This document shows positions 1-30,955 of a stretch of 64,000 bases of DNA, piece by piece. The position numbers and the translations under genes were made by a program. The stretch's first letter is position 1; every line of letters starts with the position of its first letter. Source of the DNA: Rikenellaceae bacterium (GTDB lineage: Bacteria > Bacteroidota > Bacteroidia > Bacteroidales > Rikenellaceae); NCBI GenBank assembly GCA_031549495.1, contig JAVBPS010000041.1, positions 9,121 through 73,120 of the forward strand, given 5' to 3'. Under the pieces are notes generated by a model. That model saw only the letters and a program-made list of their open reading frames with translations. It ran no database searches and had not been told where the DNA came from.

Positions 1-1314
1 ACGGATCACCTTCCAGTCGTCGAACACCACGCTCTGGCGCGGCCAGAACGTGACGGGCGGGCGGTTGCCCTCGCCCATCGAGGGGTGCTCGCTGAATTCC
101 CAGTAGAGGTACTCGTGTTGTCCCTGTTCGCCCTTGCCCGTCAGCGTGGGGGCGAACGAGATGCCGTCCGTCTGCGCGGGGACCGGAGCCCCGGCCAGTT
201 CACATACGGTGGGCATCACGTCCCAGAACGCCGAAAGATGCTCCGAGCGCGAACCCGCGGGGATGGTGCCCGTCCAGCGGGCGATCATCGGGGTGTGCAC
301 GCCGCCTTCGATCAGGTCGCGCTTGTAGCCGTTGAACGGGCCGTTGGATTTGAAGAAGCGGTAGTCGTGGCCGCCCTCGTAGTGGGCGCCGTTGTCGCTG
401 GTGAAGATGATCAGCGTGCGCTCCGAGAGTCCCGCCCGCTCCACCCCGGCGGCGATCAGGCCCACGTAGCTGTCCAACGCCTGTATCATCGAGGCGAAGG
501 CCTGTTCCTCTTTGGGCCAGGTCTGCCAGAGGTAGGCCGTGGGCGGGGTCTGGTCGTGGAATTCCATCGGCGAATGGGGCAGGCAATAGGCCACGTAGAG
601 GAAGAACGGTTTATCCTTATGCCCGTCGATGAACCGGAGCGCCTTTTCGGTGACGATCTTATCCATGTTGATCGGGCGTTCTGCCATTTCCTGCTTATTT
701 AAATTATAGAGCTTGCCGTTCTCGTAGACGGGTTCGACGCCGTATTTCGAATACTGCGCGTAAGGGATATGGGTGCCGTCCCTGCGCCAGAGCGTGTCGA
801 CCATCACCCCGAAGCGGTTGCCGTAGTTGGAGGCCAGTTTGCCGAAATGGTAGTCGAAGCCGCGGCGGTAAGGGGTCTGGTCGGGAGACCGTTCCTCGCC
901 CAGGTGCCAGCGGCCGCACATGCCGGTCACATAATCCGTATTGACCTTGATCGCCTCGGGGACGGTCTGTACGCTGTTGTCGATCGGCATGGGGCCTACG
1001 TTCGGAATGCCCTTGTTGCCGCGCAGGATGGCGTGGCCCAGGTGCTGGCCGGTCATCAGGCTGCCGCGCGAGGCCGAGGAGACGGGGCCCCCGGCGTAAT
1101 GGTGCGTGAACATCATGCCCTCGCGCGCCAGGCGGTCGATGTTGGGGGTCTTGATCACTTTCTGCCCGAAGATGCCCAGGTCGCCGTAGCCCAGGTCGTC
1201 GGCCAGGATGTAGATGATGTTGGGTTTGGGCGCTTGTTGTTTCTGGGCGGCCATGCCGGTGGCGGGCAGGGCGGCGGCGCAGCAAAGGGTATTCAGCAGG
1301 GCGGTAGTTTTCAT
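1..1314 (-). CDS. Sulfatase (formylglycine-dependent, Ser-type signature); first 438 codons, C-terminus lies beyond the left edge
   Basis: Own translation of the minus strand from ATG 1314..1312: MKTTALLNTLCCAAALPATGMAAQKQQAPKPNIIYILADDLGYGDLGIFGQKVIKTPNIDRLAREGMMFTHHYAGGPVSSASRGSLMTGQH... The frame stays open to nt 1, so it is absent from the ORF track. It has a signal peptide, a DDLGYGD metal-site motif and the signature S-S-A-S-R-x-x-L-M-T-G (nt 1080..1066). Confidence 0.9.
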   Translation of the reverse strand, partial: MKTTALLNTLCCAAALPATGMAAQKQQAPKPNIIYILADDLGYGDLGIFGQKVIKTPNIDRLAREGMMFTHHYAGGPVSSASRGSLMTGQHLGHAILRGNKGIPNVGPMPIDNSVQTVPEAIKVNTDYVTGMCGRWHLGEERSPDQTPYRRGFDYHFGKLASNYGNRFGVMVDTLWRRDGTHIPYAQYSKYGVEPVYENGKLYNLNKQEMAERPINMDKIVTEKALRFIDGHKDKPFFLYVAYCLPHSPMEFHDQTPPTAYLWQTWPKEEQAFASMIQALDSYVGLIAAGVERAGLSERTLIIFTSDNGAHYEGGHDYRFFKSNGPFNGYKRDLIEGGVHTPMIARWTGTIPAGSRSEHLSAFWDVMPTVCELAGAPVPAQTDGISFAPTLTGKGEQGQHEYLYWEFSEHPSMGEGNRPPVTFWPRQSVVFDDWKVIR

Positions 1315-1366: not shown

Positions 1367-1478
1367 CAAAAGTAGGCAATATCCCGCAGACGCCCTTGCC
1401 CGTCGATCCCGTTTTTTTGTCCGAACAGGCCATTACGGCAAACGACCCGCCGCCCGGGCAGCGGGAAGACGTTGCCCG
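1367..1478 (-). promoter_or_regulatory. Sulfatase promoter/operator module: three CGGRCAA boxes, GCGGGATAT, and -7 box TACTTTTG
   Basis: Read on the minus strand: CGGGCAA (1478..1472), ATGGCCTGTTCGGACAA (1433..1417), CGGGCAA (1402..1396), GCGGGATAT (1387..1379), TACTTTTG (1374..1367, a perfect TAnnTTTG). The layout and spacing to the ATG are identical to the susC upstream module at 5931..6042. Confidence 0.6.
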
Positions 1479-1613
1479 TAAGCGCCTTTTTATTGCTTTG
1501 GCGGGCCGGACGGCAGGGTGTATACTGAAAACAGCAGGTTATCGTTATATTTGAAGAATATAGGATGCGCCCCGGCAATTTTCAAGCAAGCTTGAATTGC
1601 ACTCGGCTTTCAC

Positions 1614-1621
1614 TATATTTG
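1614..1621 (+). promoter_or_regulatory. Candidate Bacteroidota -7 promoter box (TATATTTG) for the HTCS gene; a second identical box lies at 1546..1553
   Basis: Perfect TAnnTTTG matches 18 nt and 86 nt upstream of the ATG at 1639. Motif match only. Confidence 0.4.
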
Positions 1622-1638
1622 TACGACTGCAACTTCCA

Positions 1639-4600
1639 ATGCGCATGAATTTTTTCCGATCCACACTGCTATACGCCGCGTGGTTGTGGTGCCTGCCCGC
1701 CGCGGCGGCGCAACTGCCCGGCACGGGGCCGGACTACAAGGTCCGGGTGATCTCCGTGAACGACGGCCTGCCGCAGCAGGCGGTCAACTCGGTCATGCAG
1801 GACCGCCACGGCTTCCTCTGGCTGGGTACCTACGACGGGCTTTGCCGCTACGACGGCTACGGCTTCCGCACCTGGCGCCATATCCCCAGCCAGGAAAATT
1901 CACTGGGCAACAACCGCATCCTGGCCACCTGCGAGGATTCGCGCGGCAATATCTGGATCGGCACCGAGGGCGCCGAGGCCCTGAACCTGTACGATTACGA
2001 CACGGATCGCTTCATCCATCCCCGCCAGGGGCCCTGGCGCGAGGTGCGCACGATCTGCGAGGACGCCGCGGGCAAACTCTGGATCGGTACCTCGACCGGG
2101 CTTTTCATCGCCGAAGGGTGTCCGAAAGACTCCATGGAGGCCCGTTTCGCGCCCCGTTACACGCGGATCGACACGCTGCGCGAGGGACCCATCCATAAGA
2201 TCGTGCGCGACGCGGAAGGGAATATGTGGGTGCTGGGCGGCGGCGGGATCGTCTGCGCCGACCCCTCGGAGCGTGTGATCGGCCATTACAACGGCGGCGT
2301 GGCGGCGGCGCGGACGATCTGCTGCGATTCGCGCTCGGCCATCCTGGCCGTCTGCCCGGGCGAGGTCTGGGTCCGCGAACGGGGGCAGTCCGGTTTCCGC
2401 CGGATGTTCGCCGGGGGCAGTTCGCTGCAAAGCATCGCCGAGCTTCCCGATTCAACCTACCTGATCGGCACCGAGAGCGAACGGGTGTTCGTGCTTGCCC
2501 GCACACCCGGCGGGGAATTCCGGGCGAGCTATCCGGATTTCAGCCGCAATCCCTTCTTCGACCGGAATATCGTCAAGACGATGCTCATGGACCGTGCCGG
2601 ATGCCTGTGGATCGGTTCGGGCCACAACGGGCTGGCGATGGTCGATATGAACCCGAAGCGTTTCAACCGCCTCGAACTCTCCTCCGCGGGCGGGCATTAT
2701 TTCGCCCGCTCGGTGCTGATGGACTCGCGCCACCGGCTCTGGATCGGGGTCAAGCTGGGGGGGCTCTACCGGACCGAAGGGGGCGTGTGCCGCAAACTGG
2801 CGGTGGACGAGCGGCAGAGTTTCAACGCCATCCTCGAGGACCGCGGCGGCAACGTCTGGGTCTGCACCAACCGCAACGTCTACATCGACCGGGGGGGCGC
2901 ATTGGTCAATCTGCGCGACGTGCCCGGCGTGCCGAAGGACGTCTACCGCCAGATCGTCAACGCCAACTGCATCGCCGAGGACCCGCGCGGCGACATCTGG
3001 ATCGGCGGGCCGGGCAAAATGCTGCGCCTGCGCGGGATCTTCACCCGCGACTTCTCCTACCGTTATTATACGGACGACTTCACGGCGGACCTCTACTGCA
3101 TCCGGACCGACCCGGCTTCGGGACGCATGTGGTGCGGATCGCGCTCGCGGGGGCTGTGGATCGTCAGTTTCGACGCCGCCACGGAGGTGGCCTCCGTCGC
3201 GCACATCGGCTACGGCCGCGGCTCCCTGAAGAGCGACCACATCTGGTGCCTGGAACCGGACAGCGGCGGGGCGATGTGGGTGGGCACCGACTCGGGCCTG
3301 AACAAGGTCGTGATCGGGCAAAAAGACACCACCATCGTCAACCTGGACGCCTCGCCCAAGCTGGAACACAGCAAGATCATGGCCATCACGCGCGACGCGG
3401 CCGGCGACCTGTGGCTCAACACCGGCCAGGGGCTGGTCCACTACTCGCCCGGCGGGAACCGCTACCGCGAATACTTCTATTCGGACGGCCTGTACAGCAA
3501 CACCATGACCGAGGCGGCCTTCCTCGACCCCCACGGGATCATCTACGCGGGCACCATCGACGGGCTGAACTGGTTCGACCCGCGCCAGATCGCCGACGAC
3601 CCTTACACCATCCCCCCGCAGATCGTCAGCCTGAAGACCGGCAACCGCGAGATCACCGCCTCCACGCCGGGGCAGAAGATCCTTCAGGGCAATATCATGG
3701 ACGCCCGCCGCATCGTGATCCACCACCACGACGACAACTTCACGCTCGGTTTCCTGAGCCCCTACTACCGGAACCAGGAGCTCACGCGTTACGCCTACCG
3801 CATGGAGGGGATCGATCGCCAGTGGATCGAGACGGACGCGGGCCAGCGCGAGGCGACCTACAACCGCCTGCCCGCGGGGCACTACACCTTCCGGGTGCGC
3901 TCGGCCAACCCGGACGGCATCTGGAGCACGGAGGAACGCACGCTGGAGGTGGTCGTCAAGCCCGCGCCGTGGAACACCTGGTGGGCCTACACGCTTTATG
4001 TGCTGGCGGTGCTGGCCATCGTCTTCACCCTCCTGCGCTACTACTACCTGCAATACAAATTCAAGCGCGACGCCCAGATGGAACACGTGCAGCGCGAGCA
4101 CGAGCGCATCCTGAACGACGTGAAACTGAAATTCCACACCAATATCTCCCACGAGATCCGCACCTCGCTCACCCTCATCTCCGCTCCCGTGGACGAGATG
4201 ATCGCCACCGGCAGGCAGACGGGCGACGACGGGGCGCGGCTGGGGATCATTAAGCGCAACGTGGACCACCTGAGCGACCTGGTGCACCAACTGCTCGACA
4301 TGCGCCGCATCGACAAGGAGGCCCTGCCGCTACAGTTGCAATGGATCGACCCGGCAGGCATCGTGGCCGACGTTTACTCGCGTTACCGCAGCGCGGCGGC
4401 CCAGAAACGGATCAATTTCACCTTCACATGCGAGGGGGCCGCCCGGGGATGGTTCGACGCGGACAAGATCATCAAGATCACCAGCAACCTGCTCTCGAAC
4501 GCCCTGAAATTCACTCCCGAGGGCGGTTACGTGTCGCTGACCGTCGACCGCATGGGCGACTGGCTGGAGATCTCGGTCGAGGACTCGGGGGCGGGCATCC

Positions 4601-5607
4601 CGCGTCCGGAGCTGGACCGCATCTTCGACCGTTATTTCCAGGGGGCCAGCCGCAGCAACACGGGAGTGGGGATCGGCCTTTCGCTGGTCCACCGGCTGGT
4701 GGAGCTGCACCGGGGACGCATCTCGGTGAGCAGCGACGAGGGCCGCGGCTCGACCTTCAGCGTCTCGCTCCCCTGCTCGGAAGAGGCCTATGAAGGGTGC
4801 GAAATGGTGCGCCGTGAGCCGGAAACGGAGGGCCGTGCGCCCGAAGAGGCCGTCACCCTGCCGCAAAGCAAACCCGTGGTGATGGTCGTCGAGGACAATC
4901 CCGACATGCTCGAATACCTCACCCTGGGGTTGCAGGAGCATTACACGCTCATCACCGACAGCGAGGTGGGGCCGGCCCTGGACAAGGCGCTCAAGTACAT
5001 CCCCGACCTGGTGCTGCTGGACGTGATGCTGCCCGGGGGCAGCGGGCTGGAGCTGTGCGAGGCGATCAAGGGCAACCTGATGACCGAGCACATTCCCGTG
5101 GTGATCCTCTCGGCCAAAGGCGACGAGCAGGACATCGCCCTGGGGTACGGCAAGGGCGCGGAGGATTACCTGACCAAGCCCTTCTCGAAAGAGTTGCTGC
5201 TGATGAAGATCGCCAACATCATCAAATACCGCCGCCGCCCGGACGGGGAAATCCGCGCTGCGGCCGGGGAGGAGCAACCCGCGGACACACGCAGCGAGTT
5301 CCTGCAGCGCATCGAGGGGATCATTGCGCAGCACTACCATCGTTCGGAGTTCTGCATCAACGATATTTGTTCCGAACTGGGCACCAGCCGCACCCAGCTC
5401 TTCCGCAAACTGCGCGCGATCACCGACAAGACCGTCTCCGACCTGCTGCGCGATCGCCGCATGGAGCGGGCCCGGGAACTGCTGCGGGACGGACGGTACA
5501 ACGTTTCGGAGGTGATGTACCTGGTGGGCATCAACAGCCCCTCCTACTTCTCCCGCACCTTCCGCGAGTACTACGGCATCTCCCCCTCCGAACATAAACG
5601 CTCGTAA
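1639..5607 (+). CDS. Hybrid two-component system sensor histidine kinase/response regulator with AraC-type HTH (HTCS)
   Basis: ORF 1597..5607; the first ATG with a signal/TM-like start (MRMNFFRSTLLYAAWLWCLPAAAAQ) is at 1639. Periplasmic propeller-type repeats (WLGTYDGLCRYDG, IWIGTEGA, LWIGTSTGL...), a TM segment, H-box FHTNISHEIRTSL, an ATPase G-boxes region (GVGIGLSLV), a receiver (VMVVEDNPDM...DLVLLDVMLPG) and a C-terminal AraC HTH (SPSYFSRTFREYYGISPSE). Confidence 0.95.
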   Translation: MRMNFFRSTLLYAAWLWCLPAAAAQLPGTGPDYKVRVISVNDGLPQQAVNSVMQDRHGFLWLGTYDGLCRYDGYGFRTWRHIPSQENSLGNNRILATCEDSRGNIWIGTEGAEALNLYDYDTDRFIHPRQGPWREVRTICEDAAGKLWIGTSTGLFIAEGCPKDSMEARFAPRYTRIDTLREGPIHKIVRDAEGNMWVLGGGGIVCADPSERVIGHYNGGVAAARTICCDSRSAILAVCPGEVWVRERGQSGFRRMFAGGSSLQSIAELPDSTYLIGTESERVFVLARTPGGEFRASYPDFSRNPFFDRNIVKTMLMDRAGCLWIGSGHNGLAMVDMNPKRFNRLELSSAGGHYFARSVLMDSRHRLWIGVKLGGLYRTEGGVCRKLAVDERQSFNAILEDRGGNVWVCTNRNVYIDRGGALVNLRDVPGVPKDVYRQIVNANCIAEDPRGDIWIGGPGKMLRLRGIFTRDFSYRYYTDDFTADLYCIRTDPASGRMWCGSRSRGLWIVSFDAATEVASVAHIGYGRGSLKSDHIWCLEPDSGGAMWVGTDSGLNKVVIGQKDTTIVNLDASPKLEHSKIMAITRDAAGDLWLNTGQGLVHYSPGGNRYREYFYSDGLYSNTMTEAAFLDPHGIIYAGTIDGLNWFDPRQIADDPYTIPPQIVSLKTGNREITASTPGQKILQGNIMDARRIVIHHHDDNFTLGFLSPYYRNQELTRYAYRMEGIDRQWIETDAGQREATYNRLPAGHYTFRVRSANPDGIWSTEERTLEVVVKPAPWNTWWAYTLYVLAVLAIVFTLLRYYYLQYKFKRDAQMEHVQREHERILNDVKLKFHTNISHEIRTSLTLISAPVDEMIATGRQTGDDGARLGIIKRNVDHLSDLVHQLLDMRRIDKEALPLQLQWIDPAGIVADVYSRYRSAAAQKRINFTFTCEGAARGWFDADKIIKITSNLLSNALKFTPEGGYVSLTVDRMGDWLEISVEDSGAGIPRPELDRIFDRYFQGASRSNTGVGIGLSLVHRLVELHRGRISVSSDEGRGSTFSVSLPCSEEAYEGCEMVRREPETEGRAPEEAVTLPQSKPVVMVVEDNPDMLEYLTLGLQEHYTLITDSEVGPALDKALKYIPDLVLLDVMLPGGSGLELCEAIKGNLMTEHIPVVILSAKGDEQDIALGYGKGAEDYLTKPFSKELLLMKIANIIKYRRRPDGEIRAAAGEEQPADTRSEFLQRIEGIIAQHYHRSEFCINDICSELGTSRTQLFRKLRAITDKTVSDLLRDRRMERARELLRDGRYNVSEVMYLVGINSPSYFSRTFREYYGISPSEHKRS

Positions 5608-5625
5608 GGTGGTCTGTGCTGCGAA

Positions 5626-5748
5626 GGCTGCGCATATAGCGCGCCGCTTTTCATCGATCCTTTCGGTTTTGATGCTCGACGTACATAAAGTACGCCTGCG
5701 CTCAAACCTCGAAACGATCGATGAAAATCGACGCACTCTATGCACAGC
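5626..5748. repeat. Long imperfect palindrome (34-nt arms, 28/34 complementary, 56-nt spacer) just after the HTCS stop
   Basis: Left arm 5626..5659 is the reverse complement of GATCGATGAAAAGCGGCGCGCTATATGCGCAGCC. Right arm 5716..5748 is GATCGATGAAAATCGACGCACTCTATGCACAGC. The inner 12 bp (TTTTCATCGATC/GATCGATGAAAA) are perfect. Confidence 0.7.
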
Positions 5749-5831
5749 GAAAGTTCGGACGGTGGTTTTGCTAATACTTGGGGTGCGCTTCCTTCGGTGA
5801 TCTGGCTCTTTAGACTACCTTTTTATTGCTT

Positions 5832-5915
5832 GTCATTCAGAGCGAAGCGAAGAATCTTGGTCGGAATGGTTCTGTACACAGCCTGACCAGGATTCTTCGC
5901 TTCGCTCTGAATGAC
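5832..5915. repeat. Palindromic intergenic repeat, family copy 1 (31-bp stem with 1 mismatch, 22-nt loop)
   Basis: GTCATTCAGAGCGAAGCGAAGAATCTTGGTC (5832..5862) pairs with GACCAGGATTCTTCGCTTCGCTCTGAATGAC (5885..5915). It shares the core GTCATTC..GAAG(C/T)GAAGAATCT and the loop GGAA..GTTCT.TACACAGCCT with the copy at 20533..20617. Confidence 0.85.
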
Positions 5916-5930
5916 AAATATTCCCCGGGC

Positions 5931-6042
5931 CGGGCAACACCGATCAAATCCCTGTGAAATAACGCTCCGGGGCCGATGGCCCGTTCGGGCAACTTTTCGG
6001 CCTTATCGGGCAATGCCGCCCGGCGGGATATGCTTATACTTG
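5931..6042 (+). promoter_or_regulatory. susC promoter/operator module: three CGGGCAA boxes, GCGGGATAT, and -7-like box TATACTTG
   Basis: CGGGCAA (5931..5937), ATGGCCCGTTCGGGCAA (5976..5992), CGGGCAA (6007..6013), GCGGGATAT (6023..6031), TATACTTG (6035..6042, one mismatch to TAnnTTTG). The box ends 52 nt before ATG 6095, exactly as in the sulfatase module. Confidence 0.6.
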
Positions 6043-6094
6043 CAATGGCCGCGAACCTCGGCCAGCTACTGACAAAGAACCAAAACTATCTGAT

Positions 6095-9000
6095 ATGAAG
6101 AATCTTTCCCTTTTTCTAACGCTTCTGTGTGTGCTCCTTCTGAGCAGCGGCGCGCATGCGCAGCAGATTCGCGGCAGCGTGAAATCGGCCGCCTCGGGCG
6201 AACCCCTGGCCGGCGCCATCGTCATGGCCGAGGGTACCAGGGCCGGAGCGACCACCAATTCGAAAGGCGAATTCACCCTGACGGTGGCCTCGCTGCCGGT
6301 GCGGCTCGAAGTCTCCTTCGTGGGCATGGAATCCAGAACGGTGAACGTCACCTCGGCCGAACGGCCTGTACAGGTGCTGCTCGACGAGACGGCCGAGGCG
6401 CTGGACGAACTGGTGGTCATCGGCTACGCCGTGGTGCGCAAAAGCGACCTGACGGGCTCCGTGGGCCAGATGAAAGCCTCCCAGATCAACGACTCGCGCA
6501 TGATCTCCATCGAACAGGCGATGGCCGGCCACCTGGCCGGGGTGAACATCGTCAACACCAGCGGCGAGCCCGGCGCGGGGATCAGCATCAACATCCGCGG
6601 CGTGGGCTCGATCAACTCCGACACCGAGCCCCTCTACGTGATCGACGGGATGCCCTATATCAAGGACGCGGGCACCGAGGTGGGCAACATCTCCGGTCTG
6701 AACTCGGCAACCATCAACCCCATGTCGTCGCTCAACCCGCAGGACATCCAGTCCATCGAGGTGCTCAAGGACGCTTCCGCGACCGCGATCTACGGCTCGC
6801 GCGGGGCGAACGGCGTGGTGCTCGTGACCACCAAGTCGGGCTCGGCGGGCAAACCGCGCGTGAGCATCTCAGCCTTCGTGGGCGTGAGTGAGGTCTCCAA
6901 GAAGATCGACATGCTCGACGCGAACACCTTCATCGACTACATGGCCTACGACCGCAAGACGGAGCAGTACATCACCAAAGGCGACTCGCTGCGCAACCTG
7001 GCCCCGCACTACAACTGGCAGGACTACCTGTTCAAGCGCGCCGTCAAGCAGGAGTACAGCGTCGGGGTGAACGGCGGCAACAACCAGGGCACCGCCTATT
7101 CGATCAGCGTCAACTACGTGGATCAGAACGGCCTGGTCAAGAATTCGGATTACACGCGCTACGGCGCCCGCGCCCGCGTCGACCAGAAGATCGGCAGCAA
7201 AGCGCGCGCGGGGGTGAACCTGAACTACGCCGAGTTCACCCAGGTCGGGGTCTCGTCAGGCGGCTCGAAGGACACCGGCTCGGACGTCTTCCAGCAGGCG
7301 CTCTCGTACCGTCCGGTGAACGTGCGTTTCAACGCCTCGGACCTCGACGAAAGCGGCGAACTGAGCGGGGACTACAACTCCCAGACCAACCCCTTCGACT
7401 ACCTGAGCAACGCGCTCAACAAGACCAACAACACCCGCACCACGGCCATCGCCTACGTGCAGTATGAATTCCTCAAGGGGCTGTTGTTCAAATCGTCGTT
7501 CAACTACAACACCACCATGACCAACAAGCTCGGCTTCTACCCGCCGAGCATCGCCGCGGGCGCAGCCAACGGCGGGCGCGGGATCAACGCCTACGCGCGC
7601 CGCTACAACTGGGCGTGGGAGAACATCGCCACCTACAAGACCACCTTCTGCAAGAAGCATAACTTCGACGCGCTGGCCGGTTACACGATGGAGCAGCAGT
7701 ACGCCCGCGACTACTCCCAGGAGTCGCAGAACTACCCCGAGGCCTACAACAAACTCACGGGCGTGAACACCGGCCTGGGCCTGACGGTCCTCGCCCCGGT
7801 GGTCTCCGAGTGGTCGAGCGCCATGGTCTCCTACTTCGCCCGCGTGAATTACAACTACGCCAGCCGTTATTACTTCACGGCGAGCATCCGCGCAGACGGA
7901 TCGAGCAAGTTCCCGAAGGGGGAGAAATTCGGTTACTTCCCCTCGGCCGCCGTGGCATGGAAGGCCTCCGAAGAGCCCTTCATGAAAAACAGCAAGGTAT
8001 TCAGCGACTTCAAACTGCGCGCCAGCTGGGGCCTGACGGGCAACCAGAGCATCCCGGCGTACAGCAGCCTCTCGCGCTACCAGTCGGTCTACTACTCGAC
8101 CAACACCACCGGCGGGCTGAGCCCCACGCCCCGGCAGTGGGCGGGCCTGGCCGTCAGCTCGATCGCCAACCCCGACCTGACTTGGGAGACCACCAAGCAG
8201 TTCGACGCCGGGATCGACATCTCGTTCCTGCGCCACCGCCTCTCGGCCACAGTAGACTACTACTATAAGAAGACCTACGACATGCTCCTCAACAAGCCGC
8301 TGCTCTATTCGACCGGTTACAGCCGCATGATGTACAACTCGGGCAGCCTGCGCAACTGCGGTTGGGAGGTGACGGTACAGAGCCAGAACATCACACGCAA
8401 GAAATTCTCCTGGACCACCAACCTGAACATCACCTTCAACCGCAACAAGGTACTCGACCTGGGCGAGAACGCCTACCTGCCGTTCAACGCCAGCAACACC
8501 TACGACGAGGCGTTCGTGCTCGTCCCGGGGCAGGCGGTGGGCACGATGTACGGCCTGGTCTACGACGGGGTCTACAAGTTCAGCGATTACAAGAACTTCT
8601 ACATCGACAACGATCCTTCGAAATACATGCGTCCCAAAGACGAATGGACGGCCATCTACAACGACCTGGTGGCCCACCCCACCAAAGCGCAGTTGGTGGA
8701 CGGCGTTCCCCTCTACGCGGGCAGCACGCCCCTGCCGGGCAACGCCAAGTTCCGCGACCTGACGGGCGAAGGCGACATCAACGCCCTGGACCGCGCCTAC
8801 ATCGGCAGCAGCGCCCCGAAATTCTTCGGCGGTATCTCCAACCGGTTCACCCTGAAAGATTTCGACCTGAACGTCTTCTTCCAGTTCTCCTACGGCAACG
8901 ACCTGTTCGTCTCCAACTATCAGGCGCTGGACGGCTACGGCACGCGCAACGTGCTGCAATGGATCTACGACGAGTCGTGGAAACCCACCCCCGAGCGGCA

Positions 9001-9310
9001 GACCGACCGCTGGCCCAGCTACATGGTGGACAGCTACAAGACCGTCACCTCGAACATGTGGGTCGAGGACGGCTCGTACCTCAAACTGAAGGACGTCACG
9101 CTGGGCTACACGCTGCCGCGCAAACTGCTTTCGAAGATCAAGATGAACACCGTGCGCGTCTACCTGACCGGGCAGAACCTCTGGACGTGGACCAATTTCA
9201 GTTGGTACGACCCCGAAACGGGCGACGCCAGCTCGGTCACCGCGGGGCACTACCGATTCAAATACCCCAGCTCGCGTACCTTCATTTTCGGGGTGAACAT
9301 CGACTTTTAA
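6095..9310 (+). CDS. SusC/RagA-family TonB-dependent outer-membrane receptor
   Basis: 1071 aa. Signal peptide, CarboxypepD_reg-like N-terminus (IRGSVKSAASGEPLAGAIVMAEGT), plug motifs (DELVVIGYA, NIRGVGSINSDTEPLYVIDG, VLKDASATAIYGSRGANGVVLVTTK) and a beta-barrel C-terminus ending ...FIFGVNIDF. Confidence 0.96.
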   Translation: MKNLSLFLTLLCVLLLSSGAHAQQIRGSVKSAASGEPLAGAIVMAEGTRAGATTNSKGEFTLTVASLPVRLEVSFVGMESRTVNVTSAERPVQVLLDETAEALDELVVIGYAVVRKSDLTGSVGQMKASQINDSRMISIEQAMAGHLAGVNIVNTSGEPGAGISINIRGVGSINSDTEPLYVIDGMPYIKDAGTEVGNISGLNSATINPMSSLNPQDIQSIEVLKDASATAIYGSRGANGVVLVTTKSGSAGKPRVSISAFVGVSEVSKKIDMLDANTFIDYMAYDRKTEQYITKGDSLRNLAPHYNWQDYLFKRAVKQEYSVGVNGGNNQGTAYSISVNYVDQNGLVKNSDYTRYGARARVDQKIGSKARAGVNLNYAEFTQVGVSSGGSKDTGSDVFQQALSYRPVNVRFNASDLDESGELSGDYNSQTNPFDYLSNALNKTNNTRTTAIAYVQYEFLKGLLFKSSFNYNTTMTNKLGFYPPSIAAGAANGGRGINAYARRYNWAWENIATYKTTFCKKHNFDALAGYTMEQQYARDYSQESQNYPEAYNKLTGVNTGLGLTVLAPVVSEWSSAMVSYFARVNYNYASRYYFTASIRADGSSKFPKGEKFGYFPSAAVAWKASEEPFMKNSKVFSDFKLRASWGLTGNQSIPAYSSLSRYQSVYYSTNTTGGLSPTPRQWAGLAVSSIANPDLTWETTKQFDAGIDISFLRHRLSATVDYYYKKTYDMLLNKPLLYSTGYSRMMYNSGSLRNCGWEVTVQSQNITRKKFSWTTNLNITFNRNKVLDLGENAYLPFNASNTYDEAFVLVPGQAVGTMYGLVYDGVYKFSDYKNFYIDNDPSKYMRPKDEWTAIYNDLVAHPTKAQLVDGVPLYAGSTPLPGNAKFRDLTGEGDINALDRAYIGSSAPKFFGGISNRFTLKDFDLNVFFQFSYGNDLFVSNYQALDGYGTRNVLQWIYDESWKPTPERQTDRWPSYMVDSYKTVTSNMWVEDGSYLKLKDVTLGYTLPRKLLSKIKMNTVRVYLTGQNLWTWTNFSWYDPETGDASSVTAGHYRFKYPSSRTFIFGVNIDF

Positions 9311-9328
9311 CGCAAAAAACGCAAAGCC

Positions 9329-11047
9329 ATGAAAAATAAAATCATATCGCTCTGTCTGCTGCTGAGCCTCGGCCTGGCCTCGTGCGAAACCTCCTTCCTG
9401 GACGAGAAGATGACCACCTCGCTCGGGGGCGGGGAGGTCTACAACTCGGTGGCCAACTTCGAAATGGTGCTCATCGGGGTCTACGACTGCCTGGGTACCC
9501 GTTCGCTGCCCACCATTTCGGGCGTGACCAACTACATGTCCAACTACAACGGCGGCATCTTCATCCTCAACGAGCTGGCCACGGACGAGATGTGCGCCGT
9601 CACCGCCGGGGCCTCCAAGAACCTGGAGATCGAGGAGTTGGACAAAGGCATCCCCACCTCGTCGAACAGCATGGTCGAGGGGGTCTATGCCGGCGCCTTC
9701 ATGATGATCAACCGCGCCAACGACCTGATCGGCAACATCGCCGCGGCCGCGCCCAACCCCCAGCTGACCCAATTCGAAGGCGAAGCGCGTTTCCTGCGCG
9801 CCCTGGGCTACTACAACCTGGTGAGCCTCTACGGGGGCGTGCCCTGCACCGAAACGCCGGGGGCCGACCAGGAGGACAAAGTGATCCCGCGCGCCACGAC
9901 CGAACAGGTCTACGATTTGATCTTCAAGGACCTTGAAAGGGCCTATAACGTGCTGCCCGTATCCTACGCAGGGGTCTACGGCCGGGCGACGAAGACGGCC
10001 GCCGCCGCCCTGCTCGCCCGCGCCAACCTGACCGCCGCGACGATGAAGAAATACGCCTCCATCACCGCCGACCTCAAGCTGGAGGGCAACATCAACAGCT
10101 ACGACTGGGTCGACACCGGCGAATGCTTCACCCGGGCGCGCGACTACGCGGGCAAGGTGATCGAGGTGGGGTACAAGAACGTGACCGACACGCTGGTGCG
10201 CCTCGCGTTCGAGCAGAGTTTCTATCCCTACGAGAACACGCCCGACGTGATCTTCGACGTGCAGTTCGCCGCCAACCTCGCGCAGAGCGAAGGGGGCTGG
10301 GTGGGCTACATGTCGGGCCCCGGGTCGTGGTGCTGGGCGATCCTCTCGCAGAACATCGTCTGGAACTACCAGCCCGTGGGCGCCGCGCTGACCAACGACC
10401 AGCGTTTCCCCAACCCGGCGACCAAAGCCAACTGCGACATGCGCAAGCACAAGACCGTGACCAACTATAACTACACCGCCGGCGGCCAGCTCTGGCCCCC
10501 CACGGCAGCCAACAAGAACTACAACCTGGGTAAGTTCGCCATGGAGCAGAACATCTCCTACGCCAAGCAGAACACCCCGATCAACTACACCGTCCTGCGC
10601 CTGGCCGAGGCCTACCTGATCTGGGCCGAGGCCGACGCCGAGTTGAACGACGGTCCCACGGACAAAGCCTTCGAGATGCTCAACTACGTGCGCCGCCGCG
10701 CCGCCGACGCGAACATCCTGCCCGACATCGTGGAGACGAACCTGTGGAACGACGCCGTGGTCATCCCCATCACGGGGATCATCGCGCAGGACGACCTGGA
10801 GCAGTTCCGCCTGGCGGTGCTGCAGGAGCGCATGTTCGAACTTTGCGGCGAGTCGGTGCGCCGGACCGACCTGATCCGCTCGGGCTGGATCATGCCCATC
10901 CTGCAGAACGTGAACACGAAGTACTACACGGACGGCACGACCATGTATAAACCGCGCCAGATGAAGGCCAACAACATCTTCATGCCCATTCCCAGCCGCG
11001 AGATCGGGCTGAGCAACAACGTGGTCATCCAGAATAGCGGCTATTGA
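9329..11047 (+). CDS. SusD/RagB-family nutrient-binding outer-membrane lipoprotein
   Basis: 572 aa. Lipobox LGLASC, 18 nt after susC, with SusD-like helical motifs (RFLRALGYYNLVSLYGGVP, LRLAEAYLIWAEA). Confidence 0.93.
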   Translation: MKNKIISLCLLLSLGLASCETSFLDEKMTTSLGGGEVYNSVANFEMVLIGVYDCLGTRSLPTISGVTNYMSNYNGGIFILNELATDEMCAVTAGASKNLEIEELDKGIPTSSNSMVEGVYAGAFMMINRANDLIGNIAAAAPNPQLTQFEGEARFLRALGYYNLVSLYGGVPCTETPGADQEDKVIPRATTEQVYDLIFKDLERAYNVLPVSYAGVYGRATKTAAAALLARANLTAATMKKYASITADLKLEGNINSYDWVDTGECFTRARDYAGKVIEVGYKNVTDTLVRLAFEQSFYPYENTPDVIFDVQFAANLAQSEGGWVGYMSGPGSWCWAILSQNIVWNYQPVGAALTNDQRFPNPATKANCDMRKHKTVTNYNYTAGGQLWPPTAANKNYNLGKFAMEQNISYAKQNTPINYTVLRLAEAYLIWAEADAELNDGPTDKAFEMLNYVRRRAADANILPDIVETNLWNDAVVIPITGIIAQDDLEQFRLAVLQERMFELCGESVRRTDLIRSGWIMPILQNVNTKYYTDGTTMYKPRQMKANNIFMPIPSREIGLSNNVVIQNSGY

Positions 11048-11048
11048 T

Positions 11049-12404
11049 ATGATCCGCATACGCCATATTTTCCAGGGATTGCTGGCCGCCTGCCCGCTCG
11101 CCGCTTCGGAGGCGGGCGGCGGGGCGCCCAATATCATCGTCATCCTGACCGACGACCAGGGGGTGGGCGACCTCTCGTGCCAGTGGGCGCGGGATATGCA
11201 GACCCCGAACATCGACCGGCTGTTCACCGGCGGGATGCGCATGGACAACTTCTACGCCAATTCGACCGTCTCCTCGCCCAGCCGGGCGGGGCTGCTCACG
11301 GGGCGTTATCCCGAGATGGTCGGGGTGCAGGGGGTGATCCGCACCGTGCCCACGGCCAGTTGGGGCTACCTCTCGCCCGAGGCGGTGCTGCTGCCTTCCG
11401 TTTTGAAGCAGGCGGGCTACGCCACGGCCCATATCGGTAAATGGCACCTGGGTCTGGAAAGTCCCAACCTGCCCAACGAGCGGGGCTTCGATCGGTTCCA
11501 CGGCTTTCTGGGCGACATGATGGACGACTACTACACCCACGTGCGCCAGGATCACAACTACATGCGCCTGAACGACAAGCAGATCGACCCGAAAGGACAT
11601 GCCACCGAGCTTTTCACCTCGTGGGCGGTCGACTACATCCGCTCGCGGGCGGGCAACAAGCAACCCTTCTTCCTCTACCTGGCCTACAACGCCCCGCATG
11701 TCCCCCTGCAGCCGCCCACCCAGTGGGAAGAGCGGGTGAAGGCGCGCGAAAAGGGCATCGACCCCACGCGCGCCAAACTGGTCGCCCTGATCGAGCACCT
11801 GGACGATAACGTGGGTAAGGTGATCGCGGCGCTGGAGCGGACCGGACAGTTGGAAAATACCCTGATCGTCTACGCCTCGGACAACGGCGGGCAGGAGTCG
11901 GTGATGGCCGACAACGGTCCTTACCGCGGCGGGAAGGGCGATATGTACGACGGCGGCATCCGCGTGCCGTGCGCCTTCTACTGGAAGGGGACGATCGCCC
12001 CGGCACGCTGCGAGCGGCTCGTGATGATGTCCGATATCTTCCCCACGGTGTGCGAGGCCGCCTCGGCGACCTTCACGCACTGCATCGACGGGGTCTCGGT
12101 GCTGCCCACCCTGCTGGGCAAGGAACAGCAGACCGACGGGCGCTACGTCTACTGGATGCGGCGCGAACACGGCGATCTGGGGGGCAAGACGCAGAACGCC
12201 GTGATACACGACGGGATGAAACTGTTGCAGAACCGCCCCTTCGAGGCGATGCAGCTCTTCGACCTGAGTAACGACCCTTACGAGAAGAACCCCCTGCCGC
12301 TGAAAGGCGAGGCGTTCACCTCGCTCTATAAGAACATGATGGAACATTACCGGCTTACCGGGGCGGTGCCCTGGCAGAAGCCGCAGGAAAAGACCGAACG
12401 ATGA
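11049..12404 (+). CDS. Sulfatase (formylglycine-dependent, Ser-type)
   Basis: 451 aa. Signal peptide, NIIVILTDDQGVGD, and the signature S-S-P-S-R-A-G-L-L-T-G-R with the predicted FGly serine codon at 11271..11273. The start lies 1 nt after the susD stop. Confidence 0.93.
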   Translation: MIRIRHIFQGLLAACPLAASEAGGGAPNIIVILTDDQGVGDLSCQWARDMQTPNIDRLFTGGMRMDNFYANSTVSSPSRAGLLTGRYPEMVGVQGVIRTVPTASWGYLSPEAVLLPSVLKQAGYATAHIGKWHLGLESPNLPNERGFDRFHGFLGDMMDDYYTHVRQDHNYMRLNDKQIDPKGHATELFTSWAVDYIRSRAGNKQPFFLYLAYNAPHVPLQPPTQWEERVKAREKGIDPTRAKLVALIEHLDDNVGKVIAALERTGQLENTLIVYASDNGGQESVMADNGPYRGGKGDMYDGGIRVPCAFYWKGTIAPARCERLVMMSDIFPTVCEAASATFTHCIDGVSVLPTLLGKEQQTDGRYVYWMRREHGDLGGKTQNAVIHDGMKLLQNRPFEAMQLFDLSNDPYEKNPLPLKGEAFTSLYKNMMEHYRLTGAVPWQKPQEKTER

Positions 12405-14563
12405 AACTTTGCCTCAAACTGACCTTCACGGCGCTCGCGGCGCTGTGCCTCGCGGCCGCAGGTTGTGCGGACGGGGATACCATCGATTTGCGCCAACCCG
12501 CCGCCCAGGGTATTTATTTCTCCGCGGACGGCGCGATGCAGCCCGATTCGTGCGGGATGCTGAAAACCTACACGCTGCTGCTGCCCGGCTATGCGAAGGG
12601 CGTCTACCTCGCCCAGGACAGCTATTACGATTACTGGCAGGTGAACGGCAACCGCGTGCTGCCGTGGTATTTCACCCCCGCCACCCTCTGCCCGGTCTTC
12701 ACCGGGCCGGCCTACGGCGTGGACGGCAAGCAGAATCCGGCCTATGCCGTCGCCTCGGCTAAGGGACGCAAGCGGCAGGTCTCGCGCCACGGGGTGCTCA
12801 TGCACCTGGCGTTGGACGACGGGCGCTATATGGCGCTGCTGCCGATGGCGGGCCCCGAAGCGGTGTCGTGGCTCTATGTGACTGAGCAGGGCGCGGTCGA
12901 GGTGCAGCTTTGCACGCACGGCACCGAGGCGGTCCAGGGCCCCGTGGCCGCGCTGGCGTGGGCTGTCGGGCAGAACGCCAACGAAGCGTGCTGGAACCTT
13001 TTCAGCGCGCTGGAACGGGACGAGAGGCTGCCCCGCAGCTTCCGCCTGCGCTACCAAAAGGAGTATCCCGAGCCTTTCCGTTACCTGGGATGGTGCACCT
13101 GGGAAGAGTATAAAAAGAGCATCGACGCGCGGATCGTGCTCGACGACCTGGCCAAACTGCGCAAAGGGACGTTGCCCGTGCGCTACGCGATCGTCGACGA
13201 CGGGCACCTGTCCGCCGACCGCGACACGACCGGCGGCAAGGCCAACCGGCTGTCGAGCTTCCGCCCCAACGAGAAATTCCCGGACGGGTTCGCCCCCATC
13301 CTGGCCATGCGGGACACCGCCACGATGCGTTGGTTCGGCCTGTGGCACAACATGAACGGCTATTGGGGCGGTTTCAGCCCACGCAACGATTTCGGCGAGC
13401 GGGTGAACGCCGCCATGCGCACCATCGAAAAAACGGGCATGTACGTGCCGAAGAACGACCCCGGGTCGATCGCCACGGTCTACGGCGCTTTCCTGGGCCG
13501 GGCGGCCGACGACGGCTTCGACTTCCTGAAGGTCGACTGGCAGGCGGCCAACCTCTACCAGTTGAACCATTCGGAGAACGCCGCCGCGCAGGCCTTCGCC
13601 ACCTCGCGCGTGGTGGACGATATCGCCCACGAGCGTTTTTCCGACGGGATGATCAACTGCATGGCGATGAACAACGTGGTACTGCTCAACACCCGGTACA
13701 CGAACGTCACGCGCGTGAGCATCGACTATAAATTGGGCAACCCGTTCATGGCCAAGGAGCACCTGCTGCAATCCTACGCCAACGCCCTGCACATGGGGCA
13801 GACCGTCTGGGGCGACCACGACATGTTCCACTCCTCGGATCCGGTCTGCGGCCGGGTGATGGCGCTCTCCAAGGCGCTCTCGGGCGGGCCGGTCTACCTT
13901 TCCGACGCGCCGGAGCGGATCGACGCCGGGATGGTGCGGCCGCTGTGCTACGCCGACGGGGAGCTGATCCGGCCCCTGGCGCCCGCGGCGGCGCTTACCC
14001 GCTCGCTCTTCTCCTCGCCCATCAACGACACGGTGGCCTACTGCGTCTGCGCCCCCCTGGCGAACGGGGCGGCGGCGGTGGCGGCCTACAACCTGTGCGC
14101 CGAGACGTTGGCGGTACAAGGAAGCGTCTCGGCCGGGGACTACCGGGCCGCGGGGACTTACCTGCAACCCTACCGGGGCGAGTGGGAGGTGCCCGCGCAG
14201 GGGCTTTACCTGTATGACTATTTCGCGGGGATGGGCGCCGTGCTGGATGGGGATTATTCGTTCAGCATCGACCGCTTCGGCGACCGCTATTTTTTGATGC
14301 TGCCCGTGGAGCAGCAATGGGCCGTGGTCGGCCGCGCGGACAAATACCTCGCGCCCGCCACCGTGAGCGATGTAAAATACTACGAATCCAGCCTCTCGTT
14401 CACCCTGGCCGAAGCGGGCCCGGTGCGCCTGTGGTCCGCCTGGGGCGAACTTTCGGCCCCCGGGATCACCTTCACCGACCTGGGCGACGGGCTCTGGGAG
14501 GGCCGCATGCCCGAAGGGGAACGGAATCTCAGGGTCACCGTGAACCGGAAGGATAAAGAATAA
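12401..14563 (+). CDS. Clan GH-D glycosidase-like lipoprotein, raffinose synthase/Sip1-type (GH36-related)
   Basis: 720 aa. Lipobox LAAAGC. Motifs YLGWCTWEEY, YAIVDDGH, FLKVDWQ and WGDHDMFHS resemble the GWCTW / KVD / DWDMF signatures of the raffinose-synthase/Sip1 family. The ATG overlaps the sulfatase stop (ATGA). Confidence 0.7.
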   Translation: MKLCLKLTFTALAALCLAAAGCADGDTIDLRQPAAQGIYFSADGAMQPDSCGMLKTYTLLLPGYAKGVYLAQDSYYDYWQVNGNRVLPWYFTPATLCPVFTGPAYGVDGKQNPAYAVASAKGRKRQVSRHGVLMHLALDDGRYMALLPMAGPEAVSWLYVTEQGAVEVQLCTHGTEAVQGPVAALAWAVGQNANEACWNLFSALERDERLPRSFRLRYQKEYPEPFRYLGWCTWEEYKKSIDARIVLDDLAKLRKGTLPVRYAIVDDGHLSADRDTTGGKANRLSSFRPNEKFPDGFAPILAMRDTATMRWFGLWHNMNGYWGGFSPRNDFGERVNAAMRTIEKTGMYVPKNDPGSIATVYGAFLGRAADDGFDFLKVDWQAANLYQLNHSENAAAQAFATSRVVDDIAHERFSDGMINCMAMNNVVLLNTRYTNVTRVSIDYKLGNPFMAKEHLLQSYANALHMGQTVWGDHDMFHSSDPVCGRVMALSKALSGGPVYLSDAPERIDAGMVRPLCYADGELIRPLAPAAALTRSLFSSPINDTVAYCVCAPLANGAAAVAAYNLCAETLAVQGSVSAGDYRAAGTYLQPYRGEWEVPAQGLYLYDYFAGMGAVLDGDYSFSIDRFGDRYFLMLPVEQQWAVVGRADKYLAPATVSDVKYYESSLSFTLAEAGPVRLWSAWGELSAPGITFTDLGDGLWEGRMPEGERNLRVTVNRKDKE

Positions 14564-14604
14564 ACACGCTTGTAAAAACGTTATTTTAACTGAAATACGC
14601 AACC

Positions 14605-15684
14605 ATGAAAACCATATTCCATATCGCCCTGGCCGCCTGCCTGTGTACGATCTCGTGCAGCGGCTACGCCGGAGACAAAGGCACCGCACCCGCCGCGACG
14701 ACCCCGCGCGGAGGGATGCTCTATTTTGCCTCCTACGGTTACGAGAACATTCCGGAAGTGATCCAGAATCCCTATATCCTCGGCGGGTTCTACACCATGC
14801 ACTGGTCGGAGATCGAGACGAAAAAAGGCGTTTTCGACTGGAAAGCGTTCGACCGTGAACTCAAACCGTGGTTCGACGCGGGCAAAAAAGTAGTCCTGCG
14901 GATCATGTGGTCGAGCAGCGGCTACTGGAAGAACCCGGCCGCCGCCACCCCCACCCCCGCCTGGGTCTGGAAAGAAGGGGCGAAATACGCCTACCACCCC
15001 GAGAGCAAAACGGAAATCCCGCTAATCTGGGACCCCATTTTCAAAGAGTACGCGATGAAGTTCATCGCCGAGATGGCCCGCCATTTCGACGGTAATCCCA
15101 ACGTGCTTTTCTTCGACGTCACGCCCGGCGCGGAGACCAACCCTTACCGCTTCGGCACGATCAACCTGCGCGACCCCGGGTTCAAAGACACCTTCGCCGC
15201 GGTCAAGGCGAGCGACGGACGCACCTATTCGAACGAGGTGTGGGTGGAAACGGTCACGGACTGGATCCGCAGCACGGCGGCGATCATCACCAAGACCCCC
15301 TGCCTGGTGACCCTGAACGTGGGCAGCCTGGACGGGACGAACAATTTCCCCGTTTTCGGACAATGCGCCGTGGACAACGGCATGTACGTGGGCCAGAACG
15401 GGCTGAACGAGAAGAGCTACAACGACAACGACCAGGCCCGCACGCTGCTCTTCCGCGAGTGGGCGAAAAAGACCAAGCTCTGCTTCGAGATGGTCCACGC
15501 CGCCGAGACCTCCAACACCGGCACGCTGATGGGGGTGATGCAGGCCGCCGAGCGCATCGGGTGCGACTACCTGAACGTCTACGCGATCGACGTAGTCAAA
15601 AGCACCCCGGCGATCCCGGCCACCTACCAGCCCCGCTGGGAAGAGGCGATGAAATACGGATACGATTACTTTAACGGGAAATGA
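14605..15684 (+). CDS. Uncharacterised secreted lipoprotein, putative TIM-barrel glycoside hydrolase (paralog A)
   Basis: 359 aa. Lipobox TISC. GFYTMHWSEIETKKGVFDW...KKVVLRIMW...LFFDVTPGAETNPYRFG...CFEMVHAAE resembles a clan GH-A / GH42-like (beta/alpha)8 fold. No family assignment is possible by eye. Confidence 0.55.
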   Translation: MKTIFHIALAACLCTISCSGYAGDKGTAPAATTPRGGMLYFASYGYENIPEVIQNPYILGGFYTMHWSEIETKKGVFDWKAFDRELKPWFDAGKKVVLRIMWSSSGYWKNPAAATPTPAWVWKEGAKYAYHPESKTEIPLIWDPIFKEYAMKFIAEMARHFDGNPNVLFFDVTPGAETNPYRFGTINLRDPGFKDTFAAVKASDGRTYSNEVWVETVTDWIRSTAAIITKTPCLVTLNVGSLDGTNNFPVFGQCAVDNGMYVGQNGLNEKSYNDNDQARTLLFREWAKKTKLCFEMVHAAETSNTGTLMGVMQAAERIGCDYLNVYAIDVVKSTPAIPATYQPRWEEAMKYGYDYFNGK

Positions 15685-17677: not shown

Positions 17678-17697
17678 AACCTAAAACGAACATAACT

Positions 17698-20504: not shown

Positions 20505-20532
20505 AATCGTTTTTCCGTATTTTTATACGTTT

Positions 20533-20617
20533 GTCATTCGGCAGCGAAGTGAAGAATCTTGGTCGGAACAGTTCTATACACAGCCTGACCAAGATTCTTC
20601 ACTTCGTTCAGAATGAC
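20533..20617. repeat. Palindromic intergenic repeat, family copy 2
   Basis: GTCATTCGGCAGCGAAGTGAAGAATCTTGGTC (20533..20564) pairs with GACCAAGATTCTTCACTTCGTTCAGAATGAC (20587..20617). The inner 20 bp are perfect. It lies 29 nt after the stop at 20504. Confidence 0.85.
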
Positions 20618-20645
20618 AATACAATGATTAATAAATCCGAATAAA

Positions 20646-24101: not shown

Positions 24102-24104
24102 GGG

Positions 24105-25175: not shown

Positions 25176-25200
25176 GGTAGTCGGGATTTGGGTGTAAATT

Positions 25201-25208
25201 CAAAATTA
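25201..25208 (-). promoter_or_regulatory. Candidate -7 promoter box (TAATTTTG on the minus strand) for the S9-hydrolase/sigma operon
   Basis: A perfect TAnnTTTG ending 25 nt upstream of ATG 25175. Motif match only. Confidence 0.4.
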
Positions 25209-26281: not shown

Positions 26282-26283
26282 TT

Positions 26284-27444: not shown

Positions 27445-27476
27445 TGTGCGTCGCACACCGTAAAAAACCCGAGCCG

Positions 27477-30950: not shown

Positions 30951-30955
30951 CGGCC

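Follow-up and report, generated by a model that had tools for sequence, protein, structure and literature searches.

What reads the short sequence boxes that recur, at identical distances from the start codon, upstream of the two genes flanking a single regulator gene? The locus that raises this question lies in 64,000 nucleotides (nt) of DNA from a Rikenellaceae bacterium (contig JAVBPS010000041.1 of assembly GCA_031549495.1, positions 9,121 to 73,120), hereafter the window, and belongs to a polysaccharide utilization locus (PUL). The regulator is a protein of the hybrid two-component system type (HTCS), and the boxes stand before a minus-strand sulfatase gene on one side of it and before susC on the other. 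From the anatomy of these sequences, their statistics and their conservation in 11 genomes, we conclude that the two regions are very probably the operator-promoter units of a PUL controlled by the HTCS encoded between them. The genes concerned are as follows.

1..1314, minus strand: target gene 1, a sulfatase gene (A of the ATG at 1314; Pfam Sulfatase, E=3.8e-46), extending past the window edge
1639..5607, plus strand: HTCS gene, encoding the proposed operator binder (Pfam Reg_prop, Y_Y_Y, HisKA, HATPase_c, Response_reg and HTH_18)
6095..9310, plus strand: SusC gene (A of the ATG at 6095), from the gene call
6095..22073, plus strand: target operon 2, encoding SusC, SusD, a sulfatase, a glycoside hydrolase family 36 (GH36)-like protein, an unknown protein, a GH42-like protein, an esterase, a DUF5689/BACON protein, another unknown protein and GH30

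The genes of target operon 2 lie on a single strand and are separated by short gaps, except for 141 nt preceding the GH30 gene; we infer that 6095..22073 is one operon. The HTCS, encoded next to both targets, has a periplasmic Reg_prop/Y_Y_Y sensor followed by HisKA, HATPase and receiver domains and a C-terminal AraC-type double helix-turn-helix. Its DNA-binding domain matches the solved structure of an HTCS response regulator (PDB 12aw, 'hybrid two-component system protein'; E=1.6e-20), and other AraC-family proteins as well. In the latch that leads from the receiver to the DNA-binding domain (..MTEHIPVVILSAK..), the window HTCS carries EHIP in place of S/CHIP, and its orthologs carry NHIP, CHIP or SHIP.

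Anatomy of the two promoters

The boxes were first described in an earlier note on this DNA, and all of them lie at the coordinates given there, each promoter being read toward its gene. Box 1 (CGGGCAA) occupies 1472-1478 on the minus strand and 5931-5937 on the plus strand. Box 2 (ATGGCCYGTTCGGRCAA) occupies 1417-1433 (minus) and 5976-5992 (plus); the two copies are identical at 15 of 17 positions and have the joint form ATGGCCyGTTCGGrCAA. Box 3, again CGGGCAA, is found at 1396-1402 (minus) and 6007-6013 (plus), followed by the motif GCGGGATAT, exact at 1379-1387 (minus) and 6023-6031 (plus). The -7 boxes, TACTTTTG at 1367-1374 (minus) and TATACTTG at 6035-6042 (plus), both end 52 nt before the ATG.

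Two mutually similar 17-bp half-sites have boxes 2 and 3 as their 3' cores. The earlier note correctly saw a 21-bp tandem spanning two helical turns, but took the 7-mer as its unit, whereas the real unit is this bipartite 17-bp half-site, with the consensus (A/T)tGGnnnnTTyGrGCAA. Two half-sites form a direct repeat with a 4-nt linker and hence a period of 21 bp. The elements are listed below with scores from a weight matrix that was built from orthologous promoters alone, the window being left out.

5921..5937, plus strand: susC 'box 1', with core CGGGCAAC (5931-5937/8), 55 bp upstream of box 2; score -2.9
5976..5992, plus strand: susC promoter-distal half-site ATGGCCCGTTCGGGCAA (box 2); score 13.6, rank 2 of 127,968 positions
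5997..6013, plus strand: susC promoter-proximal half-site TCGGCCTTATCGGGCAA (contains box 3); score 8.0, rank 26; its 3' end adjoins the position where a -33 element would be expected
6014..6034, plus strand: 21-nt spacer from the susC operator to the -7 box, containing GCGGGATAT
6035..6042, plus strand: -7 box of the susC operon, one mismatch to TAnnTTTG
1472..1509, minus strand: second, upstream sulfatase tandem, CCGGCCCGCCAAAGCAA (1493-1509), taaa, AAGGCGCTTACGGGCAA (1472-1488, includes box 1); half-site scores 6.0 and 10.8
1417..1433, minus strand: sulfatase promoter-distal half-site ATGGCCTGTTCGGACAA (box 2); score 10.4, rank 10; the tandem is third-best in the window
1396..1412, minus strand: sulfatase promoter-proximal half-site ACGGGATCGACGGGCAA (contains box 3); score 0.9, with a strong 3' core and a weak 5' part
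1367..1374, minus strand: sulfatase -7 box, a perfect TAnnTTTG, behind a 21-nt spacer (1375-1395) that contains GCGGGATAT

Could such a layout arise by chance? When the two 190-nt upstream regions are compared without gaps from the ATG, 85 of 190 positions are identical and 27 nt fall in identical runs of at least 6; identical alignment columns hold CGGGCAAC, the joint form of box 2 and CGGGCAA. None of 20,000 dinucleotide-preserving shuffles reached 27 nt (maximum 15), and of the 120 real pairs of upstream regions that the window offers, the sulfatase/susC pair matched best (runner-up 12). These results exclude chance, which the earlier note had held unlikely. Nowhere else in the 64 kb does CGGRCAA-N14-CGGRCAA occur as an exact tandem. 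The 7-mer alone is another matter: CGGGCAA has 42 copies on both strands of the window against 16.8 expected from shuffles, a 2.5-fold excess, and its density of about 1 per 3 kb per strand shows the earlier figure of about once per 10 kb per strand to be some threefold too low. The plus strand, which carries most genes, holds 32 of the 42, and codon usage probably explains the excess, which has to be borne in mind when motifs are sought in this genome by that 7-mer alone.

Conservation of the operator among HTCS orthologs

The orthologs of the window HTCS form a clade (P0001-P0015) with 39-51% identity, and the next HTCSs fall to 31%. Twelve clade loci were examined (L001, L002, L081-L087 and L091-L093; L081 and L082 share one protein, P0001). 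They carry a common gene set in shuffled order, made up of SusC/D, two to four sulfatases, a GH36-like Raffinose_syn protein and a GH42-like protein, and sometimes GH30 or GH2. Sixteen promoters from the window and 10 other genomes (11 in total, with a GC content of 36-62%) could be aligned. All 16 consist of a 17-bp half-site, 4 nt, a second 17-bp half-site, exactly 21 nt and TAnnTTTG, with zero length variation, so that the directly oriented sites lie exactly 21 bp apart, centre to centre, in every one of them, the two window promoters included. Three of these promoters may serve as examples:

L002: ATGGTTCATTCGAGCAA aaga AAGACACTTTAGAGCAA, 21 nt, TACATTTG
L091: ATGGATATTTTGAGCAA aaga ATGGTATGATAGAGCAA, 21 nt, TATTTTTG
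L083: TTGGTGAGTTAAGGCAA aata ATGACACGGCAGGGCAA, 21 nt, TATTTTTG

The 4-nt linker is A-rich in nearly all aligned promoters (aaaa, agaa, aaga, ataa, aaag, aata, agat) and reads cttt in the window susC promoter; an A-rich linker may help in recognition, as GCAAa, or in bending the DNA.

The gene downstream of the element varies among genomes (susC, sulfatase, GH36-like or GH2), and the element always adjoins the HTCS gene or lies in its PUL. In L087 the layout of the window recurs: its HTCS gene stands between a divergent sulfatase promoter and the promoter of an operon. Because the element tracks the HTCS gene across 11 genomes despite shuffled targets, the HTCS is by far the best candidate binder, as had been suspected from its AraC-type domain. 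Within the half-site, the conserved positions are a G at 3 and TTyGrGCAA at 9-17, which points to two recognition patches about 10 bp apart, as expected of a double helix-turn-helix AraC-type domain. Both recognition helices are kept within the clade (..SRTQLYRKLKA..; ..SEVMY.VGI.S.SYF.KTF.EY.G) and are different in the next-closest HTCSs.

The weight matrix, scanned for pairs 21 bp apart, leads to the same sites. Among 127,926 positions of the window, the tandem at 5976(+), in the susC promoter, ranks first, that at 1509(-), upstream in the sulfatase promoter (score 16.8), second, and that at 1433(-) third. With the scanned locus omitted from the matrix, the promoter tandem was the top match in 8 of 9 loci, and with the full matrix it was the top match in all 3 loci fetched afterwards. 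The matrix found no extra operator before the GH30 gene, in a gap (20505-20645) that holds a palindromic repeat element and TACGTTTG.

The earlier note had argued for conservation of the sites and their spacing, and had proposed phylogenetic footprinting. The first point gains from the independent conservation of the tandem half-sites and -7 box in 10 other genomes. The footprint upstream of susC-like and other PUL operons covers the tandem half-sites, the 21-nt spacer and the -7 box, but not box 1 or GCGGGATAT.

Promoter elements and a model of regulation

The primary sigma factor of Bacteroidota (sigma-ABfr) has the consensus TAnnTTTG at -7 and TTTG near -33 (PMC7366714). Exact TAnnTTTG occurs 13 times in the window, and 8 of the 13 are intergenic and oriented toward the downstream gene, although intergenic DNA makes up 4.7 kb of the 64 kb; the -7 consensus thus applies to this organism. 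The proposed -7 boxes of the regulated promoters, one perfect and one with a single mismatch, gain weight as promoter elements from their fixed 21-nt distance to the operator in 16 of 16 promoters. By contrast, no TTTG was found about 19-21 nt upstream of the -7 box at either regulated promoter, which agrees with the absence of a -33 element reported earlier. Its place is taken by GGCAAt and GGCAAg, in which the proximal half-site ends and the spacer begins.

The HTCS gene's own promoter region differs in this respect:

1546..1621, plus strand: promoter region of the HTCS gene, with two perfect TAnnTTTG at 1546-1553 and 1614-1621

The second box forms part of cTTG-N19-TATATTTG, that is, a -33-like cTTG stands 19 nt upstream, and the promoter looks like one of the -33/-7 type that would work without an activator. 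Regulated promoters without a -33 element, set against an HTCS promoter with cTTG, fit activator-dependent PUL promoters and a constitutive regulator gene. The second sulfatase tandem, placed 76 bp upstream of the proximal operator, comes within 37 bp of the HTCS gene's first -7 box, which has the opposite orientation, and autoregulation of the HTCS is possible.

Judging from the position of the -7 boxes, transcription would start about 5-7 nt past them, near 6047-6049 for susC, with leaders of about 46-48 nt. The half-sites would then cover about -72 to -56 and about -51 to -35, the proximal one just upstream of the absent -33 TTTG. Each half-site would take up one AraC-type domain of an HTCS dimer, whose two helix-turn-helix motifs would enter successive major grooves. 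One motif would contact GG (positions 3-4), the other, some 10 bp away, GrGCAA (12-17), and the two DNA-binding domains would thereby sit on the same face of the DNA. Glycan sensing and phosphorylation may free the DNA-binding domain from the receiver and so lead to recruitment of RNA polymerase. Given that the HTCS binds these sites, it probably activates.

Other kinds of element were also sought. An RNA element was rejected since the boxes lie upstream of the -7 box, and an Rfam scan of the whole window at gathering thresholds gave no match. A sigma-70 promoter/terminator scan is unsuited to Bacteroidota promoters and yielded nothing useful.

Elements confined to the window

Some of what the two window promoters share goes beyond the conserved operator. 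Box 1 does form a shared 8-mer at an identical offset in both, but is not conserved in the orthologs. The two copies also differ in kind. In the sulfatase promoter, box 1 belongs to a good half-site (AAGGCGCTTACGGGCAA, rank 7 in the window) that pairs with 1493-1509; at the matching upstream position, the susC promoter has only the 8-mer core. Upstream half-sites scoring at least 6 are present only in the window sulfatase promoter (a pair, at -97 and -76) and in L001 (a single site, at -90). Distal half-sites were therefore rejected as a conserved feature, being restricted to these two cases and lying at different distances.

The motif GCGGGATAT, which the earlier note had counted as part of the shared architecture, is missing from most orthologous promoters. 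It occurs only three times in the window. Likenesses to it stand at the same spacer position in L083 (GCGGGA, in the GH2 promoter) and in L087 (GCGGCA), and the other orthologs are without it. As a third in-phase half-site within the 21-nt spacer it was rejected, for its GG and GrGCAA positions do not fit. The equal distance of 52 nt from -7 box to ATG holds for both window promoters, but is likewise window-specific and not kept in the orthologs. A lineage-specific function or an old promoter duplication may lie behind these common features.

Alternative explanations

Several points weigh against operators through which the HTCS activates its PUL. For this organism the case is built on DNA sequence. 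Relatives above 51% identity were not found among 5.8 billion proteins and 185,579 species genomes, which puts fine-scale footprinting out of reach. The family matrix scores are poor for the sulfatase proximal half-site and for susC box 1, and the operator model leaves box 1 and GCGGGATAT unexplained, common to both window promoters at matched offsets and unconserved in orthologs as they are. Finally, the same geometry at bt4114 accompanied repression by a detached, constitutively active BT4124 fragment (PMC13292587), so geometry alone is no proof of activation.

This last point introduces the alternative that survives best, in which the HTCS does bind these operators, but to repress or fine-tune, its dimer occluding the -33 region and blocking RNA polymerase. 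The BT4124 fragment lowered transcription of both bt4114 and bt4108, where motif, 21 nt and -7 box have the same arrangement (PMC13292587). The latch motif is S/CHIP-DK, and deviations from it are tied to atypical HTCSs of host-glycan PULs, possibly phosphorylation-independent or repressive (PMC11253607); the EHIP of the window HTCS is a deviation of this type and counts against activation. Yet the detached fragment is unable to dimerise like the full-length protein, a caveat raised by its own authors (PMC13292587), and BT4124 accompanies BT4111, the main activator, as a second HTCS, whereas the window HTCS is the sole HTCS of its locus. The absence of a -33 TTTG at the regulated promoters, set against the cTTG of the HTCS promoter, is moreover the pattern of activator dependence. 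We regard repression as unlikely.

Slightly less likely again is that another protein, for example a global carbohydrate regulator, binds the repeats while the HTCS acts elsewhere, or that a second factor binds only box 1 and GCGGGATAT. These two elements, at matched offsets and unaccounted for by the family matrix and the orthologs, would find an explanation in this way, and the spacer likenesses in L083 and L087 could be read as traces of such a site. Against another binder, however, stands the way the tandem half-sites accompany the HTCS gene through rearranged loci in 11 genomes, in which no further regulator gene is conserved. Moreover, the 17-bp form with a 21-bp period is typical of AraC-type domains and of published HTCS sites.

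Duplication of one promoter within the genome, in place of box-by-box selection, is an improbable source of the shared layout. Duplication would account for the equality of all distances from box 1 to the ATG, including the 52 nt. The earlier description of the sequence between the boxes as otherwise dissimilar was roughly right, yet identity there is about 33-37%, slightly above the 26% or so expected at random, and a faint residue of common ancestry between the two promoters is conceivable. Only the boxes stayed identical, however, the remainder being near-random, and independent conservation of half-sites and -7 box in the 10 other genomes means that duplication accounts for the origin of the layout, not its retention. 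Chance clustering of a common GC-rich oligomer can be considered already refuted: CGGGCAA is indeed over-represented, and a metagenome scan for the composite GGCCNGTTCGGRCAA-N14-CGGGCAA gave three matches, all of them accidental, since they lie in coding-like DNA and lack a -7 box 21 nt downstream, but neither the shuffles nor the other real pairs equalled the observed match, and a matrix derived independently from orthologs picks these very sites.

Comparison with known operators

HTCS operators binding an activating HTCS, our preferred explanation, have well-described counterparts, and the view that HTCS operator sites are poorly defined is out of date. They were predicted in 2013, when motifs were proposed for 16 of 36 Bacteroides thetaiotaomicron HTCSs (Ravcheev 2013/RegPrecise), all of them direct repeats with a mean distance of 21 bp, interpreted as two monomers on one DNA face (PMC3878776). 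Electrophoretic mobility shift assays followed in 2024 for the bt4114 and bt4662 promoters (PMC11253607), and DNase I footprints of BT4124 in 2026, which revealed two sites in the bt4114 promoter, both made up of half-sites paired at about 21-22 bp (PMC13292587). The window operators resemble the Bacteroides sites in being direct repeats of about 21 bp upstream of susC or other PUL operons beside an HTCS gene (PMC3878776), and the BT4124 sites in that a promoter sometimes has two half-site pairs, as the window sulfatase promoter does (PMC13292587). In the supplementary alignments of 2013, TAnnTTTG stands 21 nt past the motif for BT4114, BT4116 and BT4108 alike.

The architecture is thus already established; the motif sequence is new. 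ATGGnnnnTTyGrGCAA was not found by a text search of the published B. thetaiotaomicron alignment file, in which GAGCAA occurs once, in the SusR-regulon alignment. Besides the motif sequence, the window operators are unlike known ones in belonging to an HTCS of an uncharacterised ortholog group, to a PUL with sulfatases and GH36-like and GH42-like proteins, and to a 62%-GC host. The one aspect with some room for novelty is the fixed -7 distance together with the missing -33 element, which are not discussed in the HTCS operator literature compared here, where 'RNA polymerase' and 'transcription start' are absent or irrelevant.

The closest likeness outside the phylum is to AraC. This dimeric activator of E. 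coli araBAD reads each half-site with a double helix-turn-helix domain, and at araI its sites I1 and I2 are direct-repeat half-sites of 17 bp, 4 bp apart and with a 21-bp period, the proximal one reaching the -35 region. The window operators match this geometry (17 + 4 + 17 bp, the proximal half-site ending 21 nt before the -7 box). They differ in serving a sigma-ABfr (-7/-33) promoter instead of a sigma-70 one, and in their proposed binder, a membrane-anchored fusion of sensor kinase and response regulator with a phosphorylation switch, whereas AraC uses arabinose binding and release of a DNA loop. Unlike in the ara system, no distant O2-type site is evident here; one promoter has its second tandem 76 bp upstream.

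The marboxes of MarA, SoxS and Rob offer a second likeness, in that the two elements recognised by one AraC-type domain are about 10 bp apart within a site of about 17-20 bp. These proteins are monomers on a single site, unlike the two tandem sites conserved here. The MarA-DNA complex (1BL0) has been used as a structural analogue of the HTCS DNA-binding domain (PMC13292587). SusR-type operators are also direct repeats upstream of Bacteroides PUL operons (PMC3878776), but their repeats are 67 or 77 bp apart and are read by a different DNA-binding domain.

Does the geometry extend beyond this ortholog group? In a crude de novo test on 25 unrelated HTCS loci of other Bacteroidota (L003-L025, L067 and L073; 321 -7 boxes), pairs of 17-mers identical at 10 or more of 17 positions were sought 17-26 nt upstream of the -7 boxes. 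Such self-similar 17-mers were enriched only at a period of 21 bp, which was 2-5 times more frequent than 19, 20, 22 or 23, and the best cases adjoin the HTCS gene. An example from Polaribacter reads TTGTTACATTTCAGAAA / TTGTTACATAACAAAAC, then 21 nt, then TAATTTTG. The test suggests that the geometry extends across the phylum. Two bolder ideas may be advanced jointly and as speculation. One is that a '21 + 21' rule is phylum-wide, with half-sites at a 21-bp period, exactly 21 nt more to the -7 box and no -33 element, the proximal HTCS domain replacing -33 recognition by sigma-ABfr. The other is that GCGGGATAT (at about -25) and, 55-76 bp upstream, the second tandem or the core 8-mer would serve in the window to assemble two HTCS dimers or to bring in an extra co-regulator. 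We hold the two together to be rather doubtful.

Surroundings of the locus

Two palindromes fill the 368 nt that separate the HTCS stop codon from the susC operator. An imperfect one (5627-5748; 39-nt arms, 85% complementary, 44-nt loop) directly follows the stop codon. The other is an element of about 88 bp, with 33-nt arms and a 22-nt loop, present in two copies that are about 88% identical (5830-5917 and 20533-20620). Both copies are intergenic within the PUL. The first falls in the 368-nt stretch, and susC box 1 lies 14 nt past its end; the second precedes the GH30 gene. Differences between the arms are compensatory (GCGAAGCG/CGCTTCGC vs GCGAAGTG/CACTTCGT). The element had no Rfam match and could be a repeat resembling miniature inverted-repeat transposable elements or repetitive extragenic palindromic sequences, a hairpin terminator or a structured RNA. 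In L083, L085 and L087, the operator begins within about 40 nt of the HTCS stop codon.

A second PUL, of another regulatory type, neighbours the first at 23535-34348 of the window, and the HTCS matrix scan found no operator there. Its genes are as follows.

23535-24101, minus strand: extracytoplasmic function (ECF) sigma factor
26284-27444: FecR-type anti-sigma factor
27477-30950: SusC with an STN domain, then SusD and a BACON/Fib_succ protein

The GC content of the window, 62%, is unusually high for a Bacteroidota genome carrying SusC/D PULs. The lineage is poorly sampled: the best match to the HTCS reaches 51% identity in the protein search, and the closest genomic relative, in the set with one genome per species, is an HTCS of B. 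oleiciplenus at 46%.

Significance for PUL regulation

The current picture of PUL regulation is unchanged by these operators. What they do supply, for an HTCS ortholog group so far uncharacterised, is an operator motif open to testing and a regulon of two promoters. That group controls a sulfated-glycan PUL in gut Bacteroides (for example B. oleiciplenus, B. salyersiae) and in uncultured relatives. The strict geometry of 17, 4, 17 and 21 nt and then the -7 box, maintained over 36-62% GC, provides a natural dataset on how a membrane-anchored AraC-type regulator positions Bacteroidota RNA polymerase. Should the '21 + 21' rule be true, HTCS operators and regulons would become predictable de novo in any Bacteroidota genome.

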